Positions 4,318 through 63,621 of a DNA stretch of 64,000 nucleotides are shown in pieces. This stretch comes from Candidatus Saccharimonadales bacterium (GTDB taxonomy: Bacteria > Patescibacteriota > Saccharimonadia > Saccharimonadales > UBA10212): assembly GCA_035758565.1 (NCBI GenBank), contig DASTXL010000001.1, positions 203,242 through 267,241 of the forward strand, written 5' to 3'. Under the pieces are notes generated by a model that saw only the letters and a list, made by a program, of their open reading frames with translations, was not told where the DNA came from and made no database searches. The translations under genes and the position numbers were made by a program. Numbering within the stretch: the first letter of the stretch is position 1; every line of letters starts with the position of its first letter.

Positions 4318-4587
4318 ATGAGCCGCTCACTGAAAAAAGGTCCATATGTTGACCCTAAACTAGCTAAGAAGATTGCCGCCCTGAACTCGGATGACCGCAC
4401 GGTCGTTAAAACCTGGGCCCGTGCCAGCACTATCTCTCCTGATTTTGTTGGTCGCACTGTTGCTGTTCATAACGGCCGTGTGCACGTACCGGTCTTCATT
4501 ACCGAAAACATGGTTGGTCACAAGCTTGGCGAATTCGCTCCAACCCGTAAGTTCCGCTCGCACGGTGGAAAGTTAGCCAAAGGTTAA
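4318..4587 (+). CDS. rpsS: 30S ribosomal protein uS19
   Basis: [11 protein letters not shown] start and [11 protein letters not shown] motif. Confidence 0.95.
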
Positions 4588-4597
4588 GGATTAAATT

Positions 4598-4984
4598 ATG
4601 CCAGTTAAAGCAATTTCAAAAGGAGTTCGCATCAGCCCGCGCAAAGTCAGCGTGGTGGCGGCGTTGGTTCGTGGCCGAACTGTTGAGGATGCCATCGTAA
4701 TTCTTGACCACACACCGCGTCGCAGCGCTAAAGCCGTTAAGGAAACCATTAAGAGCGCGGCTGCTAATGCCGAGCACAACCATAATTTTAAGCCAACTAG
4801 CTTGTTTATCTCTGAGATTTCCGTAACTCCGGGTCCACGCCTTAAGCGCTATCGCCCAGCTGCTCGTGGCCGCGCCCTGCCATTTGAGCGAAAGACCAGC
4901 CACATCCGCGTTGTTGTTGACGGAGATCAGCGTGAGATTAAAAAGACGACCACCAAAGTCACTACCGAGAAGGAGGCCAAATAA
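4598..4984 (+). CDS. rplV: 50S ribosomal protein uL22
   Basis: ISPRKVSVVAALVRG motif and operon position. Confidence 0.9.
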   Translation: MPVKAISKGVRISPRKVSVVAALVRGRTVEDAIVILDHTPRRSAKAVKETIKSAAANAEHNHNFKPTSLFISEISVTPGPRLKRYRPAARGRALPFERKTSHIRVVVDGDQREIKKTTTKVTTEKEAK

Positions 4985-5106
4985 TGAGTGAATTTGGAAG
5001 AGGGGTTCCTGTGGGAGAGGCTTTAGAATTCGATCGCACCAATGAAGGCGACAGAGCTGTTGTTAGCATCGAAAATATTGACCCACGCACTTTGGCGGCT
5101 GTTCTG

Positions 5107-5193
5107 AGGGAAAAGAAAAGCACCGGTTCGCCGGATGGCGAATCTGGATTTATTCCAGAAGGTGCGATAGGAAAAACCGTAGGTTTGTCCTAT
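5107..5193 (+). repeat. Structured intergenic repeat, copy 1 (three-way variant), rplV|rpsC junction
   Basis: AGGGAAAAGAAAAGC box. CACC...GGTG closes two sub-hairpins (GGTTCGCC/GGCGAATC and TGGA/TCCA). Followed by GCGAT and hairpin ATAGGAaAAACC-gta-GGTTTgTCCTAT. Confidence 0.8.
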
Positions 5194-5216
5194 GAACGAC
5201 CGGAGGGAGTGTAGTT

Positions 5217-5846
5217 ATGGGCCAAAAAGTAAATCCAATCAGCATGCGTTTACAAGTCAACAAAGATTGGCGCTCTAAGTGGTTTGCCGGCAAGCGCGAA
5301 TACGCCAACTACCTCAAGCAGGATTTGGCTGCCCGCAAGCTCATTGCCGACAAACTTGGTTCTCGCGCCGCTGTATCTAAGGTTGATATCGAACGCTCGC
5401 CAAACCTAGTCACCGTAACTATCCAGACTGCTAAGGCCGGTGTTGTTATTGGCCGTGGCGGTTCCGGCGCCGCTGAACTCAAAGAGGCTATCGAAAAACT
5501 TTATGGTGTTCCGACCCGCGTAAACATCGAAGAGATTAAGCGCCCTGAGCTGCAGGCCAAGCTGGTTGCCGAAAATATTGCCCACCAGCTAGAACGCCGT
5601 ATTGCCTTCCGCCGCGCCATGAAAATGGCCGCTGCCGGCAGTATGCGTGCTGGCGCTAAGGGCATTCGCATAGAAGTTTCCGGTCGCCTAGGCGGTATGG
5701 AAATGAGCCGTCGCGAAAAAATTACTGAAGGCTCTGTGCCTCTGCACACGCTTCGCGCTGACATTGACTACGCTGCTGCCCGCGCTCTTTACCCGGGTGC
5801 CGGCATCATTGGTGTTAAAGTTTGGATCTACCGAGGGGAGACCTAA
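5217..5846 (+). CDS. rpsC: 30S ribosomal protein uS3
   Basis: MGQKVNP start, KH-domain sequence and operon position. Confidence 0.95.
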   Translation: MGQKVNPISMRLQVNKDWRSKWFAGKREYANYLKQDLAARKLIADKLGSRAAVSKVDIERSPNLVTVTIQTAKAGVVIGRGGSGAAELKEAIEKLYGVPTRVNIEEIKRPELQAKLVAENIAHQLERRIAFRRAMKMAAAGSMRAGAKGIRIEVSGRLGGMEMSRREKITEGSVPLHTLRADIDYAAARALYPGAGIIGVKVWIYRGET

Positions 5847-5849
5847 GCC

Positions 5850-6266
5850 ATGTTAATGCCATCCCGAACTAAGTACCGCAAAGTGCGCAAAGGCAAGATC
5901 CACGGCGGCAAAGCTACCGCCCTATCTACTATTGCCTACGGCCGCTACGGACTGGTTAGCCAAGACAAGGAACGCATTAATAGCCGCCAGATCGAGGCTG
6001 CCCGCCAGGCTATGACCCGTTACGTTAAACGTGGCGGTCAGATCTGGATCCGTATTTTCCCGCACACCCCAGTTACCCGTAAGCCACAAGACGTGAAGAT
6101 GGGTAGCGGCAAAGGTAATCCAGAATTTTTTGTTGCCAAGGTTAAGCCAGGGACCATCATGTTTGAGATGGACGGCGTGCCAGAAGAAGTAGCTCGCGAA
6201 GCTATGCGCCTTGCTGGTCACAAACTACCTGTTAAGACCAAGTTTTTAGTTAAGGAGGAGGCGTAA
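5850..6266 (+). CDS. rplP: 50S ribosomal protein uL16
   Basis: [11 protein letters not shown] start and KMGSGKG motif. Confidence 0.95.
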
Positions 6267-25933: not shown

Positions 25934-26085
25934 TGATTTTGAGCCCGCCTTTTGGCGGTAGCAAAATTATCTAGTCGATACGGATGAGAACCCGGGTGAG
26001 TGAGCGAAAGCGAACAAGGGTTCGTACAGGAATGAGCGTGCAGGAATTTATTCCGAACAAGCGAATTCCGTGCAAGCGTAAGCGC

Positions 26086-26103
26086 ATCCCTCTGTCGGCT
26101 CCA
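26086..26103 (+). repeat. Direct repeat of the tRNA-Thr(UGU) 3' end (18/18 nt)
   Basis: ATCCCTCTGTCGGCTCCA is identical to 25916-25933, and lies 152 nt after the tRNA end. Confidence 0.9.
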
Positions 26104-26197
26104 TTTTTTGAACGTGTTTGCGAGGGCGTTCAAGGTGAGGAAAGTTCAGGTGGGTGTTACATTGCTAACCGCACTATACTCTGCTATAGTGCGGTCT

Positions 26198-26602
26198 ATG
26201 CAGACTAAACAAAAGGGAGATCTAGCCCTAGCATCCGCAATTCAATATTTTGTCAGCCAGGATTACGAGGTCTGTCTGCCGATAGGAGACAAGCGTGACT
26301 ATGACTTAATAATTGAGAAGGGTGGCCAGCTGTCTAGGGTTCAGGTAAAGTACGCTGGCTTATACCTGCGCGGCAATCAATGTAAGGTGGGACTACGCAT
26401 AACTGGCGGAAATCAATCATTTCATTATGCAAAGAAATACATGGACGATGCCTTTGACGAGCTTTTTGTTTATACTGCTAAGGGTGAAATGTTCCTTTTG
26501 CCATGGAGTAAAGTAACCGCAAGAAATGAAATCAGTATCGAACATAAAAAATATGAAGTTTTTCGACTGCGCGGAGGTAGTGAAGCGGTCAAACACGTCT
26601 GA
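26198..26602 (+). CDS. PD-(D/E)XK endonuclease, I-Ssp6803I-like (PDDEXK_5-type) homing-endonuclease candidate
   Basis: Start at MQTKQKGDLALASAIQYF. The DYDLIIEKGGQLSRVQVKY core gives a D...(Q)VK motif. The last 32 nt, including the stop, overlap tRNA-Tyr. Confidence 0.55.
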   Translation: MQTKQKGDLALASAIQYFVSQDYEVCLPIGDKRDYDLIIEKGGQLSRVQVKYAGLYLRGNQCKVGLRITGGNQSFHYAKKYMDDAFDELFVYTAKGEMFLLPWSKVTARNEISIEHKKYEVFRLRGGSEAVKHV

Positions 26603-26656: not shown

Positions 26657-26832
26657 TGAAATATGGCTAGTCATTTGACCGGCCATATTTCATCTTGTAG
26701 AGTGGGCTGAACCACCGGCGACAGCTTTAGCTGGCGCAAAAGGGGTTCGGCGTAGCAAAGGCACGCGCAAAAGCTCAGCTTTGAGCATGTCTGAGGCGGA
26801 GAAGCGACGAGCCGCAAGGCGAGGGAAGCGCT

Positions 26833-26850
26833 ATCCCTCCCCCTGCACCA
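26833..26850 (+). repeat. Imperfect direct repeat of the tRNA-Tyr 3' end (16/18 nt)
   Basis: ATCCCTCCCCCTGCACCA here compared with ATCCCTCCCTCCGCACCA at 26639-26656, 176 nt after the tRNA end. Confidence 0.75.
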
Positions 26851-26861
26851 AGTACAGCAAA

Positions 26862-27293
26862 ATGAATGATTTGAAACCTAAAGTTGGCGTCGGTATATTC
26901 CTCATCAAAGAAGGTCAATTATTGATGGGTAAAAGAAAGGGGTCTCACGGAGAGGGCGAGTATGCCTTGCCTGGCGGCCACCTGGAACAAGGCGAGTCTT
27001 TTGAAGAATGTGTTTTGAGGGAGCTAAAAGAGGAGGCTGGTCCAGATCTCAAGGTTGATCGGATCAAATTTCTGTGCGTGACTAATCTCCGCAAATATGC
27101 CCCTAAGCACTACGTAGATATAGGTATGTTAGCCGAGTATGTGTCAGGAGAACCGATAGTTGCAGAACCGGACGAAAAAGACTCCTGGGAATGGTACGAC
27201 ATGGATAAGTTGCCCGAACCTTTGTTTGGATGCACGGAAAACTATATTGAATCCTATCGGACTGGCAAGAGTTACTTTGAAGGCAACTTATAA
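26862..27293 (+). CDS. NUDIX hydrolase
   Basis: Nudix box GGHLEQGESFEECVLRELKEEAG. The start was trimmed to the ATG at 26862 so that the pseudo-tRNA end is not translated. Confidence 0.8.
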   Translation: MNDLKPKVGVGIFLIKEGQLLMGKRKGSHGEGEYALPGGHLEQGESFEECVLRELKEEAGPDLKVDRIKFLCVTNLRKYAPKHYVDIGMLAEYVSGEPIVAEPDEKDSWEWYDMDKLPEPLFGCTENYIESYRTGKSYFEGNL

Positions 27294-28329: not shown

Positions 28330-28932
28330 ATGTCAAAAGATAGGACTACCATAAACAAAGTCACCCTAGAGACCTTGTATGTAAAAAAGGGGATGTCCAT
28401 GAGCACCATAGCCAAAGAGTTAGGGTGCTCGGTTAACAGGGTGGTCTATTGGATGGATCAACATGGTATTAAAAGGCGCAGCATTAGTGACGCCATTTAC
28501 TTGCACAAAAATCCCAATGGAGACCCGTTCAAAATAATAACGCCCACCACACTAGAAGAAGCCAAGCTTTTAGGCTTAGGAATCGGCCTCTACTGGGGTG
28601 AGGGCACGAAGGCAAATAAGCACTCTGTGCGTTTAGGAAACTCAAATCCACATTTAATCATCGCTTTTATAAAATTTCTTACTATAATATGCGGTGTCAA
28701 TAAAGACCATCTGAAATTTGGGTTGCAACTTTTTTCAGACGTCAGTAAGAATGAAGCCTTGAATTTCTGGACAGAAGCTCTTAGCGTAAAACCCTCGCAA
28801 TTTTATAAGATAACAGTTACTATATCTGGTGCGATTGGAACATACCGGATAAAAAATAAATACGGAGTGTTAACAATCTATTACCACAACAAGAAGCTAC
28901 GAGACGCTTTAGTCTCGATGTTGCCGACATAG
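28330..28932 (+). CDS. HTH + single-motif LAGLIDADG-like homing-endonuclease candidate
   Basis: N-terminal HTH (MSTIAKELGCSVNRVVYWM). LLGLGIGLYWGEGTK resembles a LAGLIDADG motif. The last 10 nt, including the stop, overlap tRNA-Thr(GGU). Confidence 0.45.
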   Translation: MSKDRTTINKVTLETLYVKKGMSMSTIAKELGCSVNRVVYWMDQHGIKRRSISDAIYLHKNPNGDPFKIITPTTLEEAKLLGLGIGLYWGEGTKANKHSVRLGNSNPHLIIAFIKFLTIICGVNKDHLKFGLQLFSDVSKNEALNFWTEALSVKPSQFYKITVTISGAIGTYRIKNKYGVLTIYYHNKKLRDALVSMLPT

Positions 28933-29403: not shown

Positions 29404-29476
29404 AACTAGCGGTTAATTTAAAACTGTTCTAAAATACTGGGGTCCCCGCAAATTTTAATTTGTGGGGTAATTCAAA

Positions 29477-29551
29477 GGGGAGTAGCTCAGTTGGTAGAGC
29501 ACCGGTCTCCAAAACCGGGTGTCGCAGGTTCAAGTCCTGTCTCCCCTGCCA
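29477..29551 (+). tRNA. tRNA-Trp (anticodon CCA)
   Basis: Acceptor GGGGAGT/CTCCCCT, anticodon stem CCGGT/ACCGG with loop CTCCAAA, T-loop TTCAAGT, encoded CCA. Confidence 0.85.
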
Positions 29552-29702
29552 AAATAAAGTAGTCTGTCGTAAAGACAGGCTGTTTTATTTTGATATGAGT
29601 TAGGACTTGAACCGATAGGCATGAATGGCCAGTAGGCTATTCATGTTTTCTTTGCTTGGCCGGCTCGGCCAATGCTTGCATTTTGGCCAGCCGCAGAATA
29701 AC

Positions 29703-29724
29703 TCAAGTCCTGTCTCCCCTGCCA
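29703..29724 (+). repeat. Direct repeat of the tRNA-Trp 3' end (22/22 nt)
   Basis: TCAAGTCCTGTCTCCCCTGCCA is identical to 29530-29551. An inverted copy of the T-arm (AGGACTTGAACC) lies at 29602-29613. Confidence 0.9.
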
Positions 29725-29758
29725 AGACGACCGCCTAATTATAGACGGTCGTCTTTTT
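29725..29758 (+). terminator. Rho-independent terminator after the duplicated tRNA-Trp end
   Basis: AGACGACCG...CGGTCGTCT stem followed by TTTT. Confidence 0.6.
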
Positions 29759-29796
29759 ACTTTATTAGCTAATCTGACAGTGGTAAAATCAAGAGG

Positions 29797-30459
29797 ATGA
29801 GTAAAACGGTTCTAGATAAACCGGTTCTATTATGTCTTTATGGCTTCCCGGGAGCGGGCAAGAGTTATGTGGCCCGCAACATGGCTAGTGAGGTCCAGAT
29901 GGCTCACGTCAGCGCCGATCGCATTCGCAGCGAGCTATTCCAGCAGCCACGCTATGACGCCCAAGAAAACGCAATAGTTTTACACCTTATGAATTACATG
30001 ACCGCCGAGTTTTTAGAAGCTGGTGTCAGTGTTGTTTACGATATTTGTGCTGCTCGCCTAGGGCAGCGCAGGGCACTGCGCGAACTAGCCAAAAAACACA
30101 GAGCCGAGTATTTGCTGGTTTGGCTGCAAATTGATCAAGATAGCGCCTTTAACCGGACTCAAGCTCGCGACCGCAGAACCAGCGATGATCGTTTCGCCCA
30201 GCCGCAAACCCAAGAATCCTTTGGCAAAGTGGTTGGCGACATGCAGAATCCTAACCCCAACGAACCTTACATGGTTATCAGCGGCAAACACTCCTTCGTA
30301 ACTCAGAAAAACGCCGTGGTTAACAAGTTCTACCAACTAGGTCTAATCAACAGCGAGATGGTCCAGCAACATGTGGCTAAACCGGAATTGATCAATCTTG
30401 TCCCTAATCCATACAGCGGCCGCGTGGATATGAGCCGCCGAAACATAACCATAAGATAG
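29797..30459 (+). CDS. P-loop kinase-like ATP-binding protein (AAA_33/zeta-like fold)
   Basis: Walker A GFPGAGKS near the N-terminus; the size fits small P-loop kinases. Confidence 0.45.
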   Translation: MSKTVLDKPVLLCLYGFPGAGKSYVARNMASEVQMAHVSADRIRSELFQQPRYDAQENAIVLHLMNYMTAEFLEAGVSVVYDICAARLGQRRALRELAKKHRAEYLLVWLQIDQDSAFNRTQARDRRTSDDRFAQPQTQESFGKVVGDMQNPNPNEPYMVISGKHSFVTQKNAVVNKFYQLGLINSEMVQQHVAKPELINLVPNPYSGRVDMSRRNITIR

Positions 30460-30460
30460 A

Positions 30461-31186
30461 ATGTCGCAAAAACGAGTTGAAATACCTGGCATAGGCGAGG
30501 TCGTTTTGTCTAAACGACGCGGCACCACACACTTGCGGCTTAGCGTTAATGCTAAGGGCATAGTCCGAGTCGGTATGCCTTATTGGACTCCTTATGCCGC
30601 CGGCATAGCTTTTGCCCGCGAGCGCACTGACTGGATCAACAAACACCTGTCAAGTCACACCAAGGCCACTTTTAGAAGCGGCGATAGGATTGGTAAGGCT
30701 CATGTTTTGAGCATTAATCAGGATGTAGCGTTGGATAGACCAAAATCCAGACTAACAAAGACCGAGGTAATAATTAGCAGTCCTTTGCCGATTGATCACA
30801 AATTCACTCAAGAGAAAATAGTTGAGGCGTCGATCCGTGCGCTAAAACAAGAGGCTGAGACACTGTTGCCGCAACGGCTGCAATATCTAGCCCGCCAACA
30901 CGGTTTTAACTATAAAGAGGTAAGGATTCGCAGTCTAACATCCAGGTGGGGTAGTTGCTCGACCCACAAGGTCATTACTTTGAGTTTTTATCTTATGCAA
31001 TTGCCCTGGGAATTAATAGATTACGTTCTTTTGCACGAGCTGGTTCATACCGAGCAAATGAATCACGGCCCGGATTTTTGGCGACGCTTTGAAAGCGTAC
31101 TGCCAGGCGCCAAAAAATTAAGAAAGCAGGTTAATGCTCACAAACCCAGAGTTATCGCCACTAACCTCGGTGAAATGCTTGCTTAA
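30461..31186 (+). CDS. YgjP-like metallopeptidase (DUF45/M48 family)
   Basis: RWGSCS motif and the zinc motif LLHELVHTEQMNHGPDFW. Confidence 0.65.
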   Translation: MSQKRVEIPGIGEVVLSKRRGTTHLRLSVNAKGIVRVGMPYWTPYAAGIAFARERTDWINKHLSSHTKATFRSGDRIGKAHVLSINQDVALDRPKSRLTKTEVIISSPLPIDHKFTQEKIVEASIRALKQEAETLLPQRLQYLARQHGFNYKEVRIRSLTSRWGSCSTHKVITLSFYLMQLPWELIDYVLLHELVHTEQMNHGPDFWRRFESVLPGAKKLRKQVNAHKPRVIATNLGEMLA

Positions 31187-34015: not shown

Positions 34016-34497
34016 GCTCGCTCGTAAACTTCCATCTTAAAATCGTAAGGATTTTTTTGATCTTTAGCCCGTGTTTCGCTCGAAATTAGCCTCCAATCTC
34101 GGGGATCAAACTCAAAAAACCGGTCGCCTTTGGGCAAAAATTTGACAGTGTTTAAGTAAAGCCTTGTCGCTTGCGGCAGGGCTTGCTTAAATATCGACTC
34201 GCCACCGATTATAAACACCTGGTCTTCGTCGTCGACCAGGCTAAGTGCTTCTTCTAGCGAATGGGCCACTTCAGCACCCGGGCTGGGCGTGTAGCTTTGG
34301 TTGCGCGTAATAACAATATTGCGACGTTCTTTGAGTGCCCGGCCGATATTCTGGTGTGTTTTGCGGCCCATTATTATGGGGTGGCCAGTGGTAATTCTCT
34401 TAAAGTAGACCAGGTCAGCCGGCAAATACCAAGGCGTGCCTTTGGAGCTTCCAATGACATTATTTTGCGCTCGTGTAACTATTATCGAGATGTTCAT
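34012..34497 (-). CDS. folA: Dihydrofolate reductase
   Basis: [15 protein letters not shown]...[26 protein letters not shown] is typical of DHFR. Confidence 0.85.
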
Positions 34498-34563
34498 TTT
34501 ACAACCTTAAAAAATATTATCCTGCATATGTTAACTGGTATTATGGAGGCAAAGGAGGCATTC

Positions 34564-36198
34564 GTGCAAAAAGATAAAAATCCTCTTGTGGAATACAAGA
34601 TGCAGATTTCACCTGCCGGATATGTCTTCTTGGGCGATCGCGTTACTGACGTCGAGGGCAATATTTACGCTTTTAACGGTAAGACTTCTCCGCTACTGAT
34701 TGCCGCCGCTATGGCCCGTCTTAGCCGTCGAGGCAGCGATTTACGAGAAATTTTTGTTGATGAATTCGGCATGGCCGGTGAAAAAGATGCTTCGGGCCTA
34801 ATTCACCGCGTGGTTACCGCATATGGCGACGACAGCGTGCAGCAGCTCACCGGTTTGCATTTTGTGGTAGAGGACGCCTCTAATCTATTAACCAAAATGC
34901 TGGAATGGGGACGGTTTGCTGCCTACCTAGAACAATCTACCCGCTACATTTACTATGACGAAAAAGATAAAAATGGACAGTACAAATATTACGTTCCAGC
35001 CGATTTAGACCCAGAGACAGAAGCTCAATATTGCCGAATTCACGACCAGATTTTTGATCTTTATTCTGGCATGGTCCACAAGTTGACTCGCCATGTGCGC
35101 AAAGCTAATCCCGCACCTGAAGACGTCCGCGAAAAAATTGCCTGGAGAGGCGCCACCAAAGCCCAAGCCTGCGACACCATCAGACCAGTCTTGCCCGTGT
35201 CTACAAGATCGACTGTGGGCATTTATGCTTCGGCTCAGGCCGTTGAAAGTCTTATTTTGCACCTTCTCAGCGAAGATTTGCTAGAAGCCCGCTTAGCCGG
35301 TCAAAAGATCTTAGAAGAAGCTCGCAAAGTTATTCCGGCCTTTTTAGAGCGAGCCGACAAGCCAGATCGTGGCGGCGCTACCACGGCTTACCGAGCCAAT
35401 ACCCGCGCGGCCATGTCTAAACTCGCTAAAAAATATCTGCCAAAAGAATCTAAAGATTTTGATAGCGAAGTAAAGCTTATAGATTACTGGCCAAAAAATG
35501 AGTCAGAAATTATCAATCACCTGCTGTTCGCCGAAAGCAATCTATCAACCGCAGAGCTAGAAAAGGCGGTTAGAAAACTCAAGAAAGCCGATAAGCGAAG
35601 GATCTTTGATACTTATATGGGCAAAAGACTTAATCGCCGCCATCGTCCTGGCAGGGCCCTGGAGTTTCCGCACTACTTATGGGAAGTCACGGCCGATTAC
35701 GGCACTTTTCGTGATCTGCAGCGCCATAGGGTTATCGACGGTTTTGAGTGGCAAGATTTGAGCACCGCTTACGGTTACGAGGTGCCGGAGCTTGTTCGAG
35801 AAGCAGGCTTGGAGCAAGATTTTCATAAGTGTTTTGAATTATCAGAAGAACTCCATCAACTGATGCTTCAAAAAAAATACGTAGAAGAAGCCCAGTATGC
35901 AACTTTGTTCGGGCACAGGATGCGCTACCGATTTATGCTAAACGCCCGAGCAACTTTTCATTTCTTAGAACTAAGATCGAGTCCGCAAGGTCATCCAGGC
36001 TATCGCCGCATTTGCATGCAGATGCATGAGCAACTCAAAAAAGTCCACCCCATGCTAGCTAGCGCCATGCGTTTTGTAAATCAAGACGAAGACCCCAAAC
36101 TAACTAGAATGGCGGCCGAACTGGCCACTCAATATAAGCTAGAAAAGCTCGACAACCTAGAAAAACAGGCCGAGGCCGAGATGGAGAAGAACCAGTGA
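34564..36198 (+). CDS. thyX: Tandem-domain (pseudo-dimeric) ThyX-type FAD-dependent thymidylate synthase
   Basis: GTG at 34564 lies 5 nt after an AAGGAGG SD (alternative in-frame ATGs at 34528 and 34543). The first half has LEQSTRY (the S-x-RY part of the ThyX motif) but WGR in place of RHR. The second half has LQRHR but lacks the RY. Confidence 0.65.
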   Translation: MQKDKNPLVEYKMQISPAGYVFLGDRVTDVEGNIYAFNGKTSPLLIAAAMARLSRRGSDLREIFVDEFGMAGEKDASGLIHRVVTAYGDDSVQQLTGLHFVVEDASNLLTKMLEWGRFAAYLEQSTRYIYYDEKDKNGQYKYYVPADLDPETEAQYCRIHDQIFDLYSGMVHKLTRHVRKANPAPEDVREKIAWRGATKAQACDTIRPVLPVSTRSTVGIYASAQAVESLILHLLSEDLLEARLAGQKILEEARKVIPAFLERADKPDRGGATTAYRANTRAAMSKLAKKYLPKESKDFDSEVKLIDYWPKNESEIINHLLFAESNLSTAELEKAVRKLKKADKRRIFDTYMGKRLNRRHRPGRALEFPHYLWEVTADYGTFRDLQRHRVIDGFEWQDLSTAYGYEVPELVREAGLEQDFHKCFELSEELHQLMLQKKYVEEAQYATLFGHRMRYRFMLNARATFHFLELRSSPQGHPGYRRICMQMHEQLKKVHPMLASAMRFVNQDEDPKLTRMAAELATQYKLEKLDNLEKQAEAEMEKNQ

Positions 36199-36921: not shown

Positions 36922-38838
36922 ATGCAGAACCCATCTGGCACATTTATAGTCATCGAGGGTGCCGACGGCTCCGGCAAATCCACTCAGTTCAATATCCTAA
37001 AAGCCCGTCTAGAGGCGATAGGGCACGAGGTAGATGTTTTTAAATTCCCGCAGCACCACGAACCATCGGGCTATTTCGTGCATAAGTACCTGAACGGCGG
37101 ATACGGCCCGATTGATAAAATAAGCCCCTACACAGCCTCTTTGTTTTATGCGCTAGACAGATTCGAAGGAGCGCCGGCCATACGTCAATCAATGCAAAGC
37201 GGACATATAGCGTTAAGCGACCGCTATGTGGGCGCCAACATGGCTCACCAGGGGTCCAAATTTACAAATCCGGCAGAACAAAGAGGTTTCTTTGTGTGGG
37301 AAGACGGCTTGGAGTTCGAACTCTTAAACATACCTCGACCAACTCTGACTATTTTTTTGCACGTTCCAGCCGAAATATCTCAAAGACTGTTGGCTGAACG
37401 CGCCAAAAAAACTGGCGTAGCCTTAGACGAGCACGAAAAAAATGTCGAGCACCTTAGAACAACCGTCTCAACATATGAAAAACTTTGCCAGTTGTTTCCG
37501 AACGATTTTAAGTTGGTAGATTGCACCGAAAATGGCAAGCTGCTGAGCGTACCGCAAATCAACAATAAGATTTGGGATGTTGTTAAGCCTATTCTGCCCG
37601 ATAAGCCAAGCAAACCAGCTCACAGCGTAACGGTAAAACTCAACGAGACTGCTCAGTCTAAATCAGCGCCCAAGACCGATACGTCTGAGGTTCCAAAGAA
37701 GGCGGTCAAAGAAGCGGTAAGCACAAAATTAAGCCTGGCGGCCATATTAGAGGCTCGCCTGGCCGGATTAGACATTCAGCCTGAGCTAGATTGGTCAAAA
37801 GCCGGCTACGAGTACTTTAAACCACAGGATTTGCCTAAGAAAACAGCAGCTAAGTACGAGCAGTTTATGGAAGGTTTTGTGGTGTTTCACCGGGCCATGA
37901 AAGGCAAACTCAAAAAAACCGGTGCTAGCGAGGCTTTGCTCTATGACGCCTTGCCGCTAGCGGCGCAATTCGAAGTTAAGGTCCCTTTGCCAGAGAATGA
38001 ACAAGGCCTGTTAGAACAGTTTTCTGGTAGTCAAAATGTGGAGCTGCGCCAACTTGCAGGCCAGCTAAACGGCAATTCTAAGAGTAAAGCCAGCGTCCGC
38101 GACTCTAATCCGCCAGAATCTATCGATAAAATCCTTGCCCGAATCGCCGGTGAACATTTGCCGCAAGCTTTGGCACAACAACCTGAGACAGTAGAGCTGG
38201 TAGAAGCCCAGCCACGCAATGAATTTAAGGTTTTGGCCGATGTTTTATACCCGTATAGTAACTTGCCCAAACTAGACCTAGAGGCCGAGATAGACCAGTG
38301 GGGCTACCAGCAAAAAACAAAGGCCTTAGAAACCGCGCTAAAAAACTCGCCGTCAGAGGTAATGCCCAAACTTCAGTATCGGTTTGACCTAACGCTTGAC
38401 TACCGGCTCTTAAGTCACGTGGTTGGCCTGGTTAAAGATATTAAGCTACAGCCGGCCACGCCACGCTATGGCTACGACGTTCCTCACGCGGTTGACGAAG
38501 CCGGCATAACAGAAGAGTATTTAGAGTGTTTTGACAAAAGCCTGGAGCTATTTAGCACCTTGCAAGCCGCTAGCCGTGACGACTTGGCTGTTTATGCCAC
38601 CTTAACCGGGCACGAGAACCGCTGCCACGTTACTTGCAGCTTGGCGGACCTAAAGACCATTAAAGATAAAAGTCTGTCTAGCGAACTTAACCAACTGATT
38701 GATCAATTGCTAGAAAAGATAAGCGAACACCACCCAATAGCTGCCGCCAGCCTGGGTGAACAATTGTCGGAGGAAGCGCCAAAGTCAGCACGCAAAAAAC
38801 GCCCTCGCCGCCGGGGCGGCAAATCCAAGAAGTCCTAA
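36922..38838 (+). CDS. tmk: Thymidylate kinase fused to a degenerate ThyX-like C-terminal domain
   Basis: The N-terminus has FIVIEGADGSGKSTQ and DRY (Tmk). The C-terminal ~200 aa (PRYGYDVPHAVDEAGITEEYLECF...YATLTGHENRC) parallel thyX residues AYGYEVPELVREAGLEQDFHKCF...YATLFGHRMRY but lack RHR. The tail is basic. Confidence 0.65.
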   Translation: MQNPSGTFIVIEGADGSGKSTQFNILKARLEAIGHEVDVFKFPQHHEPSGYFVHKYLNGGYGPIDKISPYTASLFYALDRFEGAPAIRQSMQSGHIALSDRYVGANMAHQGSKFTNPAEQRGFFVWEDGLEFELLNIPRPTLTIFLHVPAEISQRLLAERAKKTGVALDEHEKNVEHLRTTVSTYEKLCQLFPNDFKLVDCTENGKLLSVPQINNKIWDVVKPILPDKPSKPAHSVTVKLNETAQSKSAPKTDTSEVPKKAVKEAVSTKLSLAAILEARLAGLDIQPELDWSKAGYEYFKPQDLPKKTAAKYEQFMEGFVVFHRAMKGKLKKTGASEALLYDALPLAAQFEVKVPLPENEQGLLEQFSGSQNVELRQLAGQLNGNSKSKASVRDSNPPESIDKILARIAGEHLPQALAQQPETVELVEAQPRNEFKVLADVLYPYSNLPKLDLEAEIDQWGYQQKTKALETALKNSPSEVMPKLQYRFDLTLDYRLLSHVVGLVKDIKLQPATPRYGYDVPHAVDEAGITEEYLECFDKSLELFSTLQAASRDDLAVYATLTGHENRCHVTCSLADLKTIKDKSLSSELNQLIDQLLEKISEHHPIAAASLGEQLSEEAPKSARKKRPRRRGGKSKKS

Positions 38839-48025: not shown

Positions 48026-48265
48026 TCTGTTACCGTGTCTTAATGGGAGATATGCCCGCTTAGACTGTTGCCTAACAGAGTTAATTTTGCTAATATATCC
48101 AGGAACTTGAGCCAAAGACAGCGACGGGGAAACCTTAATAAAGTCGCCTAGGAACAAGAAAGTCTTATAGATTTTTACGTTAGTCTTTTGGCCATAATAG
48201 GCCATTTTTTATAGCTCAAGACACCTTAACAAATTGGTCGATATTGTTAAACAAGGAGAAAACTC
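48026..48265 (+). promoter_or_regulatory. Long untranslated leader upstream of rplJ (candidate L10 autoregulatory leader)
   Basis: 240 nt without a credible ORF, ending in an AAGGAGAAAA SD. L10-leader regulation is known in many bacteria, but no structure was verified here. Confidence 0.25.
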
Positions 48266-63372: not shown

Positions 63373-63447
63373 TGGGACGTCGCCAAGTGGTAAGGCACCG
63401 GGTTTTGGTCCCGGTATTCGGGGGTTCGAATCCCTCCGTCCCAGCCA
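63373..63447 (+). tRNA. tRNA-Gln (anticodon UUG)
   Basis: Acceptor TGGGACG/CGTCCCA, 3-bp D stem, anticodon stem CCGGG/CCCGG with loop TTTTGGT, T-loop TTCGAAT, encoded CCA. Confidence 0.85.
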
Positions 63448-63600
63448 AGGCCGATAAATGGATCTTTAGGATTCGTTTGTCGGCCTTGATTTTTTAGATG
63501 GGATTCGAACGGGTTTGCCGGGGGCAAACCCCGAACCTAGCCCGGCGACCATGGGAGCCGGGTCGCCTTGGCAAAAGTAATTTTTCTTTTGCCGGCGAGG

Positions 63601-63621
63601 CGAATCCCTCCGTCCCAGCCA
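63601..63621 (+). repeat. Direct repeat of the tRNA-Gln 3' end (21/21 nt)
   Basis: CGAATCCCTCCGTCCCAGCCA is identical to 63427-63447. An inverted T-arm-like GGGATTCGAAC lies at 63500-63510. Confidence 0.9.

Follow-up and report, generated by a model that had tools for sequence, protein, structure and literature searches.

When a prophage or a genomic island integrates into a tRNA gene, its classical footprint is a direct repeat of the tRNA 3' end. The repeated block can be short: the core used by mv4 Int at a tRNA-Ser gene is 21 bp (doi 10.1101/2023.11.06.565760), and attB, the attachment site of Ms6, is reported to lie in the T-loop of its target tRNA gene (PMC1762012). Here, we analyzed a stretch of 64,000 nucleotides from a Candidatus Saccharimonadales bacterium (assembly GCA_035758565.1, contig DASTXL010000001.1, positions 203,242 to 267,241; the whole stretch is called the window), in which the tRNA-Trp gene is followed by a small structured insertion bounded by such a repeat. 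This insertion belongs to a family of cassettes that is specific for tRNA 3' ends, heritable and horizontally distributed. We observed insertion at the tRNA end, recurrence at several tRNAs, stacking in tandem and precise gain or loss at the repeat; the cassette itself encodes no protein. An old signature of integration here bounds tiny, highly structured non-coding units, as well as small cassettes with genes, none of which carries a recombinase; the bacteria concerned have genomes of about 0.7 Mb and very few mobile elements.

The window was compared with 80 related loci from Saccharibacteria metagenome-assembled genomes, whose NusG proteins are 87-98% identical to that of the window. Downstream copies of the last 16 nt were sought behind all tRNAs of the window and of these loci; by an arithmetic estimate, about 0.04 such repeats are expected by chance across all 166 tRNAs examined. 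Three further loci (L087, L089/L085 and L086) came from scanning metagenomes for two copies of the Trp 16-mer 135-165 nt apart, and all comparisons together covered 93 loci, about 1.4 Mb. tRNA genes were called with ARAGORN and Rfam, RNA families were searched with Rfam 15, and proteins were assigned with Pfam.

The tRNA-Trp cassette and its counterparts in the window

The tRNA-Trp gene (anticodon CCA) occupies positions 29476-29551 of the forward strand, on which the cassettes of the window lie as well. According to ARAGORN and Rfam (71.3 bits for the Rfam tRNA model), it is intact, and its CCA end is encoded. A repeat search showed that its last 22 nt, from position 55 in the T-loop to the CCA end (TCAAGTCCTGTCTCCCCTGCCA, 29530-29551, copy S1), recur exactly at 29703-29724 (copy S2), and that the copies are separated by a spacer of 151 nt (29552-29702). 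The upstream and downstream copies are identical, and the repeat is 23 nt long when the next A is counted. These are the only two occurrences of TCAAGTCCTGTCTCCCCTGCCA in the window, even when three mismatches are allowed; no match was obtained in 100 shuffles, and 0 are expected by chance. The insertion, 29552-29724, comprises 173 bases placed exactly at the end of the tRNA gene and contains no real open reading frame (ORF).

Inverted-repeat searches, folds and comparison between cassettes revealed a modular anatomy. The first module, hairpin 1 (29552-29590), has a 17-bp stem, a 5-nt loop and A-rich 5' and T-rich 3' flanks, and is terminator-like in both directions. It is followed at 29597-29613 by an inverted copy (IRL) of tRNA-Trp positions 52-68, which comprise the T-arm and the start of the 3' strand of the acceptor stem. 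This 17-nt copy, of which AGGACTTGAACC (29602-29613) is a part, is 88% complementary to the tRNA (z 6.1, with 0 of 200 shuffles as good). Next comes the body hairpin (29617-29648), with a conserved apex, GCC-AGTA-GGC, and a lower stem that covaries among cassettes, and then a third hairpin region (29651-29697) starting with GTTTTCTTTGCTTGGCC, a sequence that the window cassette has in common with L072 and that is present in a variant form in L087. In the predicted fold, positions 29703-29716 of S2 pair with the IRL and close the structure. A second hairpin with a T-run, at 29724-29760, is probably the native tRNA-Trp terminator, displaced downstream; the tRNA-Gln locus of the window shows the same arrangement, with a terminator after the repeat.

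An earlier note, made from the sequence alone, had already described the exact repeat and its spacing, the terminator-like hairpin at the start of the insert, an inverted T-arm able to pair with the downstream repeat, and a second terminator behind the duplicate, and had proposed the same check for it as for the Thr/Tyr locus. All these elements were recovered, the inverted T-arm as part of a larger inverted copy, and repeats are indeed present behind tRNA-Thr(tgt) and tRNA-Tyr. The gene is also tRNA-Trp as stated there, with its start one base upstream of the proposed position 29477. The note had named an assembly artefact as one way in which its reading could fail. Contig L093 from an independent Logan assembly (SRR25158471), which runs from within the tRNA T-arm across the cassette and into the kinase gene behind it, is identical to the window wherever it overlaps; therefore, the feature is not an assembly artefact of the window.

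The cassette layout is carried by four of the five tRNA genes of the window, those for Thr(tgt), Tyr, Trp and Gln. The tRNA-Thr(tgt) cassette (25934-26103) consists of a 152-nt insert and an 18-nt exact repeat (26086-26103), and the tRNA-Tyr cassette (26657-26850) of a 176-nt insert and an 18-nt repeat with two mismatches (26833-26850). The tRNA-Gln cassette (63448-63621), behind the gene at 63373-63447, consists of a 153-nt insert, with its inverted T-arm at 63500-63510, and a 21-nt exact repeat (63601-63621). The four cassettes are mutually divergent, and each fits its own tRNA. The order of the modules is the same in every member of the family: tRNA end (S1), hairpin 1, inverted tRNA copy, body and S2. 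Cassettes begin directly past the CCA end with their own terminator-like hairpin, contain a strongly folded body of about 90 nt, and finish with a direct copy of the last 16-23 nt of the tRNA, whose gene stays intact. At least 13 inserts between two repeat copies span 149-176 nt.

The two repeat copies at the window tRNA-Tyr gene differ. The upstream copy pairs perfectly with the 5' acceptor strand of the tRNA, and the downstream copy, which deviates from it at acceptor positions 68 and 70, has the sequence of the tRNA-Tyr allele found in L050 and L064. The downstream copy would therefore be either a relic of an older allele or foreign. It falls within the mechanically called ORF 26781-27293.

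Cassettes in related genomes

Among the relatives, no downstream repeat is present behind 58 of the 60 tRNA-Trp genes, and therefore the Trp unit is an insertion and not a conserved trailer; conservation of the duplicate in all relatives, which the earlier note had given as a finding that would speak for a functional trailer, is not what we found. The only intact tRNA-Trp cassette among these 60 genes is that of L072. Behind tRNA-Tyr, 23 of 28 genes lack a downstream repeat; cassettes were found in L004, L026, L030 (two in tandem) and L068, and degenerate or short forms in L023, L017, L055 and L047. The repeat was not found behind any of the 29 tRNA-Thr(tgt) genes of the relatives. In the window, the native Thr-Tyr spacer of these relatives follows directly after the Thr repeat, which argues for a clean insertion. 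Cassettes homologous to the window Trp cassette lie behind tRNA-Trp in L072, L087 and L089, where the tRNA has a different context.

The insertion had been proposed to extend over 29552-31186, so that two extra genes (29797-31186) would interrupt a conserved gene order. This part of the claim was not borne out. In 72 of the 80 relatives, the two genes, which encode an AAA_33 kinase and a YgjP-like hydrolase, precede secE-nusG, mostly in the position directly behind tRNA-Trp, and they therefore lie outside the insertion; the eight loci without them are mostly short contigs with little upstream sequence. On this comparison of sequences, both genes are ancestral to the clade. What is absent from most relatives is the 29552-29724 cassette. 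Hence, an insertion at the tRNA end bounded by the repeat stands, its extent has to be revised, and so, probably, does its nature: a defined family and not a leftover.

Gain and loss could be observed at several loci. In L035 and L055, a homolog of hairpin 1 and fragments of the body are kept behind tRNA-Trp and the repeat is lost, which indicates that cassettes decay by deletion and that some apparently empty sites are old remnants. Tandem arrays are present in L030, L087, L085, L086 and L047; L087 has two cassettes in tandem behind tRNA-Trp, and L086 is a GC-rich lineage with a tandem array. In one comparison, L085 and L089 share 99.6% identity across 8 kb, and the difference between them amounts to exactly 1775 nt, one cassette plus one repeat. 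The extra cassette of L085 is located on the tRNA side, between tRNA-Trp and a mini cassette, and L089 is without it; the L085 arrangement recurs in a contig of 706 kb. This 1.8-kb cassette encodes an XRE-type helix-turn-helix (HTH) protein and four small unknown proteins, and Pfam detected no recombinase among them. Past it, the repeat agrees with the tRNA over only 16 nt (from CCTGTC on), and a degenerate T-arm lies ahead of these; any crossover would therefore have occurred within the last 16 nt.

Other units of different size occupy equivalent positions. Behind tRNA-Tyr of L055 (703-1160), a 48-nt unit (GAGAACCTAC, a hairpin and TTCGAATCCTACACC) is present twice and flanks an ORF of 76 codons, which is the clearest gene cassette bounded by an inverted-T-arm/T-arm unit. 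The tRNA-Thr(ggt) gene of the same locus (4650-6210) is followed by a 1.5-kb cassette with a 47-nt repeat beginning in the anticodon loop, and after it comes a 62-nt hairpin module with a 12-nt repeat (ACGACGGCTCCA), a module that is also present in L059 (1387-1460). A different module of 85-110 nt (TTCGACTCG...AGTCGAAGGACCA) was seen after tRNA-Trp in L004, L008, L017, L023 and L029; a 25-28-nt piece of it breaks the downstream repeat of the Tyr cassette in L023 (about 4400-4445) and L017 (about 4500-4545).

The cassette bodies fall into two families. Family A includes the window Trp and Gln cassettes and those of L072, L087, L089, L026, L068, L023 and L017, and its inverted copies lie 41-71 nt past the CCA end. 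Its hairpin has the apex GCC-RGK-GGC above a lower stem that is wholly different from copy to copy yet still paired; the same GCC-apex hairpin with entirely different stem sequences occurs in nine of ten family-A cassettes. Family B includes the window Tyr and Thr cassettes and those of L004, L030 (two copies) and L047 (two copies), and is characterized by a conserved core, GCACGCGCAGGAGC...CCGAGCATGCC, with compensatory changes; its 18-nt repeats cover tRNA positions 59-76.

Bodies are shared between cassettes at different tRNAs. The bodies of L026 (Tyr) and of the L087 cassette E2 (Trp) are about 88% identical over about 88 nt, and hairpin 1, inverted copy and repeat all differ, each suited to the local tRNA. 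The body of the window Gln cassette is likewise common to the Tyr cassettes of L023 and L017. The inverted copy fits the local tRNA in detail: it is AGGACTTGAACC for the TTCAAGT T-loop of the window and CTCGAACC where the T-loop is TTCGAGT, and in L030 the inverted copy TAGG...GAACC.TAC matches the CCTAC allele of its tRNA-Tyr. In L087 E2 it is 26 nt long and extends to the variable loop. It often opens with TGG or TG right after hairpin 1, producing one long palindrome with the tRNA end.

When the window Trp cassette was folded as RNA, the tRNA-sense strand gave -71.8 kcal/mol (z -6.8) and the opposite strand -56.8 kcal/mol (z -4.3), with eight versus one G-U pairs. The same bias was obtained for 14 of 16 cassettes, with sums of -1161 versus -1060 kcal/mol and 81 versus 60 G-U pairs. 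In a single-strand DNA fold of 29520-29724, the palindrome of tRNA end, hairpin 1 and inverted copy reached z -7.5. Because the sense strand folds better and has more G-U pairs, these predicted folds point to a single-stranded nucleic acid, RNA or DNA, and not to double-stranded protein-binding arms.

The surroundings of the tRNA genes showed further features of their own. The spacer after tRNA-Thr(tgt) (26104-26165) contains a conserved hairpin whose loop is TGCGAG and, behind it, GGTGTTACAAT, similar in appearance to an extended -10 element; both are also present in the Thr-Tyr spacers of L030, L055, L061, L064, L068, L026 and L076. Between this native spacer and tRNA-Tyr lies an ORF (26201-26569) for a PD-(D/E)XK endonuclease (Pfam PDDEXK_5, 3.9e-20), which looks like a free-standing homing-endonuclease gene; it stops one base ahead of tRNA-Tyr and, among the relatives, occurs at the same spot only in L018 (77% identity). 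A NUDIX hydrolase gene (26862-27293) is located between the Tyr cassette and a DHH-family gene, which in several relatives directly follows tRNA-Tyr. No close NUDIX counterpart was found in any locus, and this gene may represent a further inserted cassette that has lost its far repeat. Finally, 28330-28932 encodes a 200-aa protein with an N-terminal HTH, and its stop codon overlaps the start of tRNA-Thr(ggt). Homologs (54-58% identity) were found only in L030 and L029, and since each again abuts tRNA-Thr(ggt), the ORF seems to travel with this tRNA gene.

Away from the tRNA genes, the ThyX ORF at 34261-36195 (645 aa) has its Thy1 domain only at residues 405-597, and the thymidylate kinase ORF at 36922-38835 (638 aa) has its kinase domain at residues 11-204; both have a long unexplained extension. 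An ordinary L10 leader (Rfam RF00557), scoring just at the gathering threshold, lies at 48094-48218 upstream of rplJ.

How the cassettes may move

The explanation that we favor, with a probability of about one half, is that the unit is a non-autonomous integrative cassette specific for tRNA 3' ends, which would be mobilised in trans via site-specific recombination. Recombination at the tRNA end would insert the cassette, with the repeat acting as attachment core, and the likely agent would be a tyrosine-recombinase-type integrase encoded elsewhere. The cassette would bring its own terminator so that the tRNA remains functional, and the old terminator would be shifted downstream. The cassette repeat, 16-23 nt at the tRNA 3' end, is in the size range of known integrase cores such as those of mv4 and Ms6. 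More speculatively, and by analogy, the tRNA end, hairpin 1 and the inverted copy might fold as a single strand and mimic a double-stranded target; the order target, spacer, inverted target, cargo, target might then be the trace of an integration event in which the site was a folded single strand, as with CTXphi or attC.

Several results weigh against mobilisation by such an integrase. Pfam detected no integrase, transposase or reverse transcriptase family in the 49 window ORFs that were scanned or in nine cassette ORFs, and no autonomous parent element was seen in the 93 loci or in the searches of IMG/VR and of phages. Classical double-stranded attachment (att) arms do not predict the bias towards folding of the tRNA-sense strand, nor the full covariation of the hairpin stems, and classical integrase sites leave the constant inverted tRNA copy unexplained. 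This copy sometimes extends to tRNA position 43, past the content of the downstream repeat. Moreover, one body is found behind Tyr and Trp, and another behind Tyr and Gln, with flanks fitting the local tRNA, for which a core borne by the element offers no easy explanation.

Searches for relatives of the cassettes in databases were also negative. BLAST of the cassette against 50,697 phage records gave no match, and pattern scans of IMG/VR with the family-B core and two family-A motifs gave chance matches or none. For one protein of the 1.8-kb cassette, the searches gave no viral relatives, and among 5.8 billion proteins it matched only itself; the other contexts in which it lies have the same arrangement. 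With Rfam 15, at gathering and at relaxed thresholds (E-value limit 0.5-5), only tRNAs were detected in the tRNA cluster and the Gln locus of the window and in three related loci. The searchable literature yielded no account of an equivalent in Saccharibacteria or in bacteria of the Candidate Phyla Radiation.

Some interpretations of single modules were also considered. A tRNA-like gene on the antisense strand was rejected, as ARAGORN found none and the putative T-arm proved unpaired on inspection, and so was the body as a decayed inverted tRNA, since no resemblance between it and the antisense 5' half of the tRNA was seen. Hairpin 1 might also be the native terminator, behind which a unit flanked by inverted repeats would have inserted; this possibility is disfavored because L035 and L055 retain hairpin 1 together with body fragments and because every unit in the tandem arrays has its own hairpin.

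The rewriting of the flanks is best explained by an insertion that duplicates its target, in which the body, with or without hairpin 1, would be the mobile part, and the repeat, and perhaps the inverted copy, would be made from the target tRNA gene. This could proceed through staggered nicks in the T-loop and after the CCA, as in casposon or CRISPR integration, or through target-primed copying with template switches. It would account for one body lying behind different tRNAs with both tRNA-derived flanks local, for the exactness of the repeats in most copies, for arrays of repeat, cassette and repeat, for the 18-nt family-B repeats spanning positions 59-76, and for the position of the new L085 cassette, which adjoins the tRNA as a new CRISPR spacer adjoins the leader. 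Yet the repeat length ranges from 12 to 47 nt among cassette types, the ends of the cassettes proper are without terminal inverted repeats, the body is passed on together with hairpin 1 and the inverted copy in the Trp lineage, and no Cas1, transposase or reverse transcriptase family was matched in the scanned ORFs; we regard target duplication as possible but not probable. Somewhat more doubtful is a broader proposal of an undescribed recombination system, in which the tRNA would anchor a platform that captures cassettes through single-strand folds, or in which insertion would write both flanks from the target. In the former case, recombinase-less cassettes (from 60-nt hairpin modules and 150-nt structured units up to gene cassettes of 1.8 kb) would pile up past the CCA end, and the inverted copy of the tRNA 3' region would pair with the direct copy, mimic the target and capture the cassette; in the latter, one body would be retargetable to any tRNA. 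The sense-strand folding also fits a putative small structured RNA, the 5' part of which would be antisense to the cognate T-arm and the 3' end of which would mimic the CCA end, and which might be a regulator of the anti-tRNA or tRNA-mimic type or else a processed trailer; such a role would be compatible with mobility. Compensatory changes in several stems, and an inverted copy that follows the local tRNA sequence (for instance CTTGAA versus CTCGAA), agree with it. However, hairpin 1 with its T-run should halt transcription coming from the tRNA, no promoter-like site was detected in a scan of the stretch from hairpin 1 to the body, Rfam gave no match, the distribution is sporadic and copies decay by deletion, and an RNA of this kind appears unlikely.

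Movement could also require no dedicated machinery. Homologous recombination after DNA uptake, with the tRNA gene as left arm and the repeat or flank as right arm, would be in line with the lack of a matched recombinase family in the scanned ORFs, with cargo between the repeats that can be as small as 60 nt or as large as 1.8 kb, with cassette lineages that mostly keep to one tRNA type and with the precise repeat-bounded difference between the near-identical L085 and L089; losses would result from recombination between the two repeat copies. It leaves unexplained, however, the origin of the repeat and of the inverted copy, the size mode of 149-176 nt, the conserved hairpins and the moves between tRNAs, and an arm of 16-22 nt is very short for RecA-type recombination, so that we consider it quite unlikely. 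The reading that the Trp insert is the remnant left by random deletion of a larger prophage or island in tRNA-Trp, with the downstream copy as the displaced original end, as the earlier note had it, and with junk for the rest, draws on the classical footprint mentioned above and on the larger cassettes found at the same site. It is very unlikely, because random deletions would not converge on a shared size and shared modules, and at least 13 independent inserts of 149-176 nt have the same module order, motifs and covarying hairpins. A misjoin induced by repeats is conceivable in what resembles a metagenome-assembled genome, and the L093 contig breaks inside the tRNA; the identical sequence in that independent assembly and the homologous cassettes in many unrelated assemblies, including the 706-kb contig, make it next to impossible.

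If an enzyme acting in trans on the favored integrative cassettes were found, it would define a route by which reduced, host-dependent bacteria acquire and shuffle small cassettes, and it could provide an insertion system that is compact, directed to tRNAs and possibly retargetable. For practical purposes, the cassettes mark recent gene flow among Saccharibacteria strains. They also call for caution in annotation, as the tRNA fragments and hairpins can be mistaken for pseudo-tRNAs, native terminators or N-terminal gene extensions (e.g., ORF 26781-27293).

Comparison with known systems

MITEs (miniature inverted-repeat transposable elements) and palindromic elements (Correia, ERIC, RPE and the IS200/IS605-derived PATEs) resemble the cassettes in being 100-200 nt long, non-coding and folded, and in being able to supply terminators. 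Unlike the cassettes, they have short or no target duplications, many near-identical copies per genome and no copies of the target. The ends of the Trp insert (29552... and ...29702) are not inverted relative to each other, the only inverted relation being that between the internal tRNA copy and the repeat; the duplicated sequence is 12-47 nt of tRNA and not of a fixed short length, and near-identical copies were not found. IS200/IS605-derived elements insert 3' of a 4-5-nt target without duplication, whereas the cassettes have a direct repeat of 16-23 nt, and no TnpA or TnpB family was matched in the window. Casposons, which are 8-20 kb long and have a Cas1 casposase, terminal inverted repeats and a target duplication of 14-15 bp, share with the cassettes, as does the duplication of CRISPR repeats, insertion at a tRNA 3' end, a defined target duplication, arrays and addition of the new unit beside the anchor. 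The cassettes differ from casposons in that they have no Cas1 match and no terminal inverted repeats, and in that the length of the duplication varies by cassette type.

The order target, spacer, inverted target, cargo and target, with two inverted target-like copies and a spacer of 40-90 nt, is like that of attP(+) of CTXphi-type integrative mobile elements exploiting Xer (IMEX), and strand-specific folding would be common to the cassettes, CTXphi attP(+) and integron attC sites; this is a resemblance of architecture only. As in integrons, recombinase-less units, among them cassettes with ORFs, form arrays, new units are added beside the anchor site, and one strand forms an imperfect palindrome. 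In contrast to CTXphi and attC, the target is the T-arm and 3' end of a tRNA and not dif or attI, and the repeat is 16-23 nt and not a few bases. A XerCD site, intI, attI and RYYYAAC/GTTRRRY cores are not present, only the T-loop AAC...GTT resembling such cores, and the cassettes contain neither a dif target nor filamentous-phage genes or other phage genes. Membership of the MITEs, integrons, IMEX, casposons or IS200/IS605 elements fails in each case on at least one defining feature.

The likeness is greater to systems that integrate at tRNA 3' ends. As in mv4 (tRNA-Ser), Ms6 (tRNA-Ala) and P4-like islands, an identity block of about 16-23 bp starts in the T-loop or T-stem and finishes at the CCA end, the tRNA remains intact between direct 3' repeats, and presence or absence is polymorphic precisely at the repeat. 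In those systems, attP adjoins the integrase gene and is double-stranded with arm-type sites, whereas the cassette flanks look like single-strand folds, and a search for an integrase gene was negative for the insert and its neighborhood, for the larger cassettes and for the 49 window ORFs scanned. The cis-mobilizable elements (CIMEs) of streptococcal ICEs (integrative and conjugative elements) and the tandem ssrA islands of Dehalococcoides (PMC5704250, PMC7563491 and PMC3146451) share with the cassettes direct repeats of a small-RNA 3' end with the target intact, tandem accumulation, and the lack of a recombinase of their own, so that they would depend on one in trans. Like CIMEs, the cassettes are flanked by att-like repeats and have no recombination or transfer genes. 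CIMEs and ssrA islands extend over kilobases and can be traced to an identifiable ICE or island with an integrase for the same att sites; the cassettes, by contrast, are 150-175 nt long, non-coding and endowed with an inverted copy of the target, and neither a parent nor an integrase was found for them. The nearest known counterparts of the tRNA-Trp cassette and its family are the integrase-less, att-flanked elements, CIMEs and tandem ssrA islands, together with the integrase systems that act at tRNA 3' ends.

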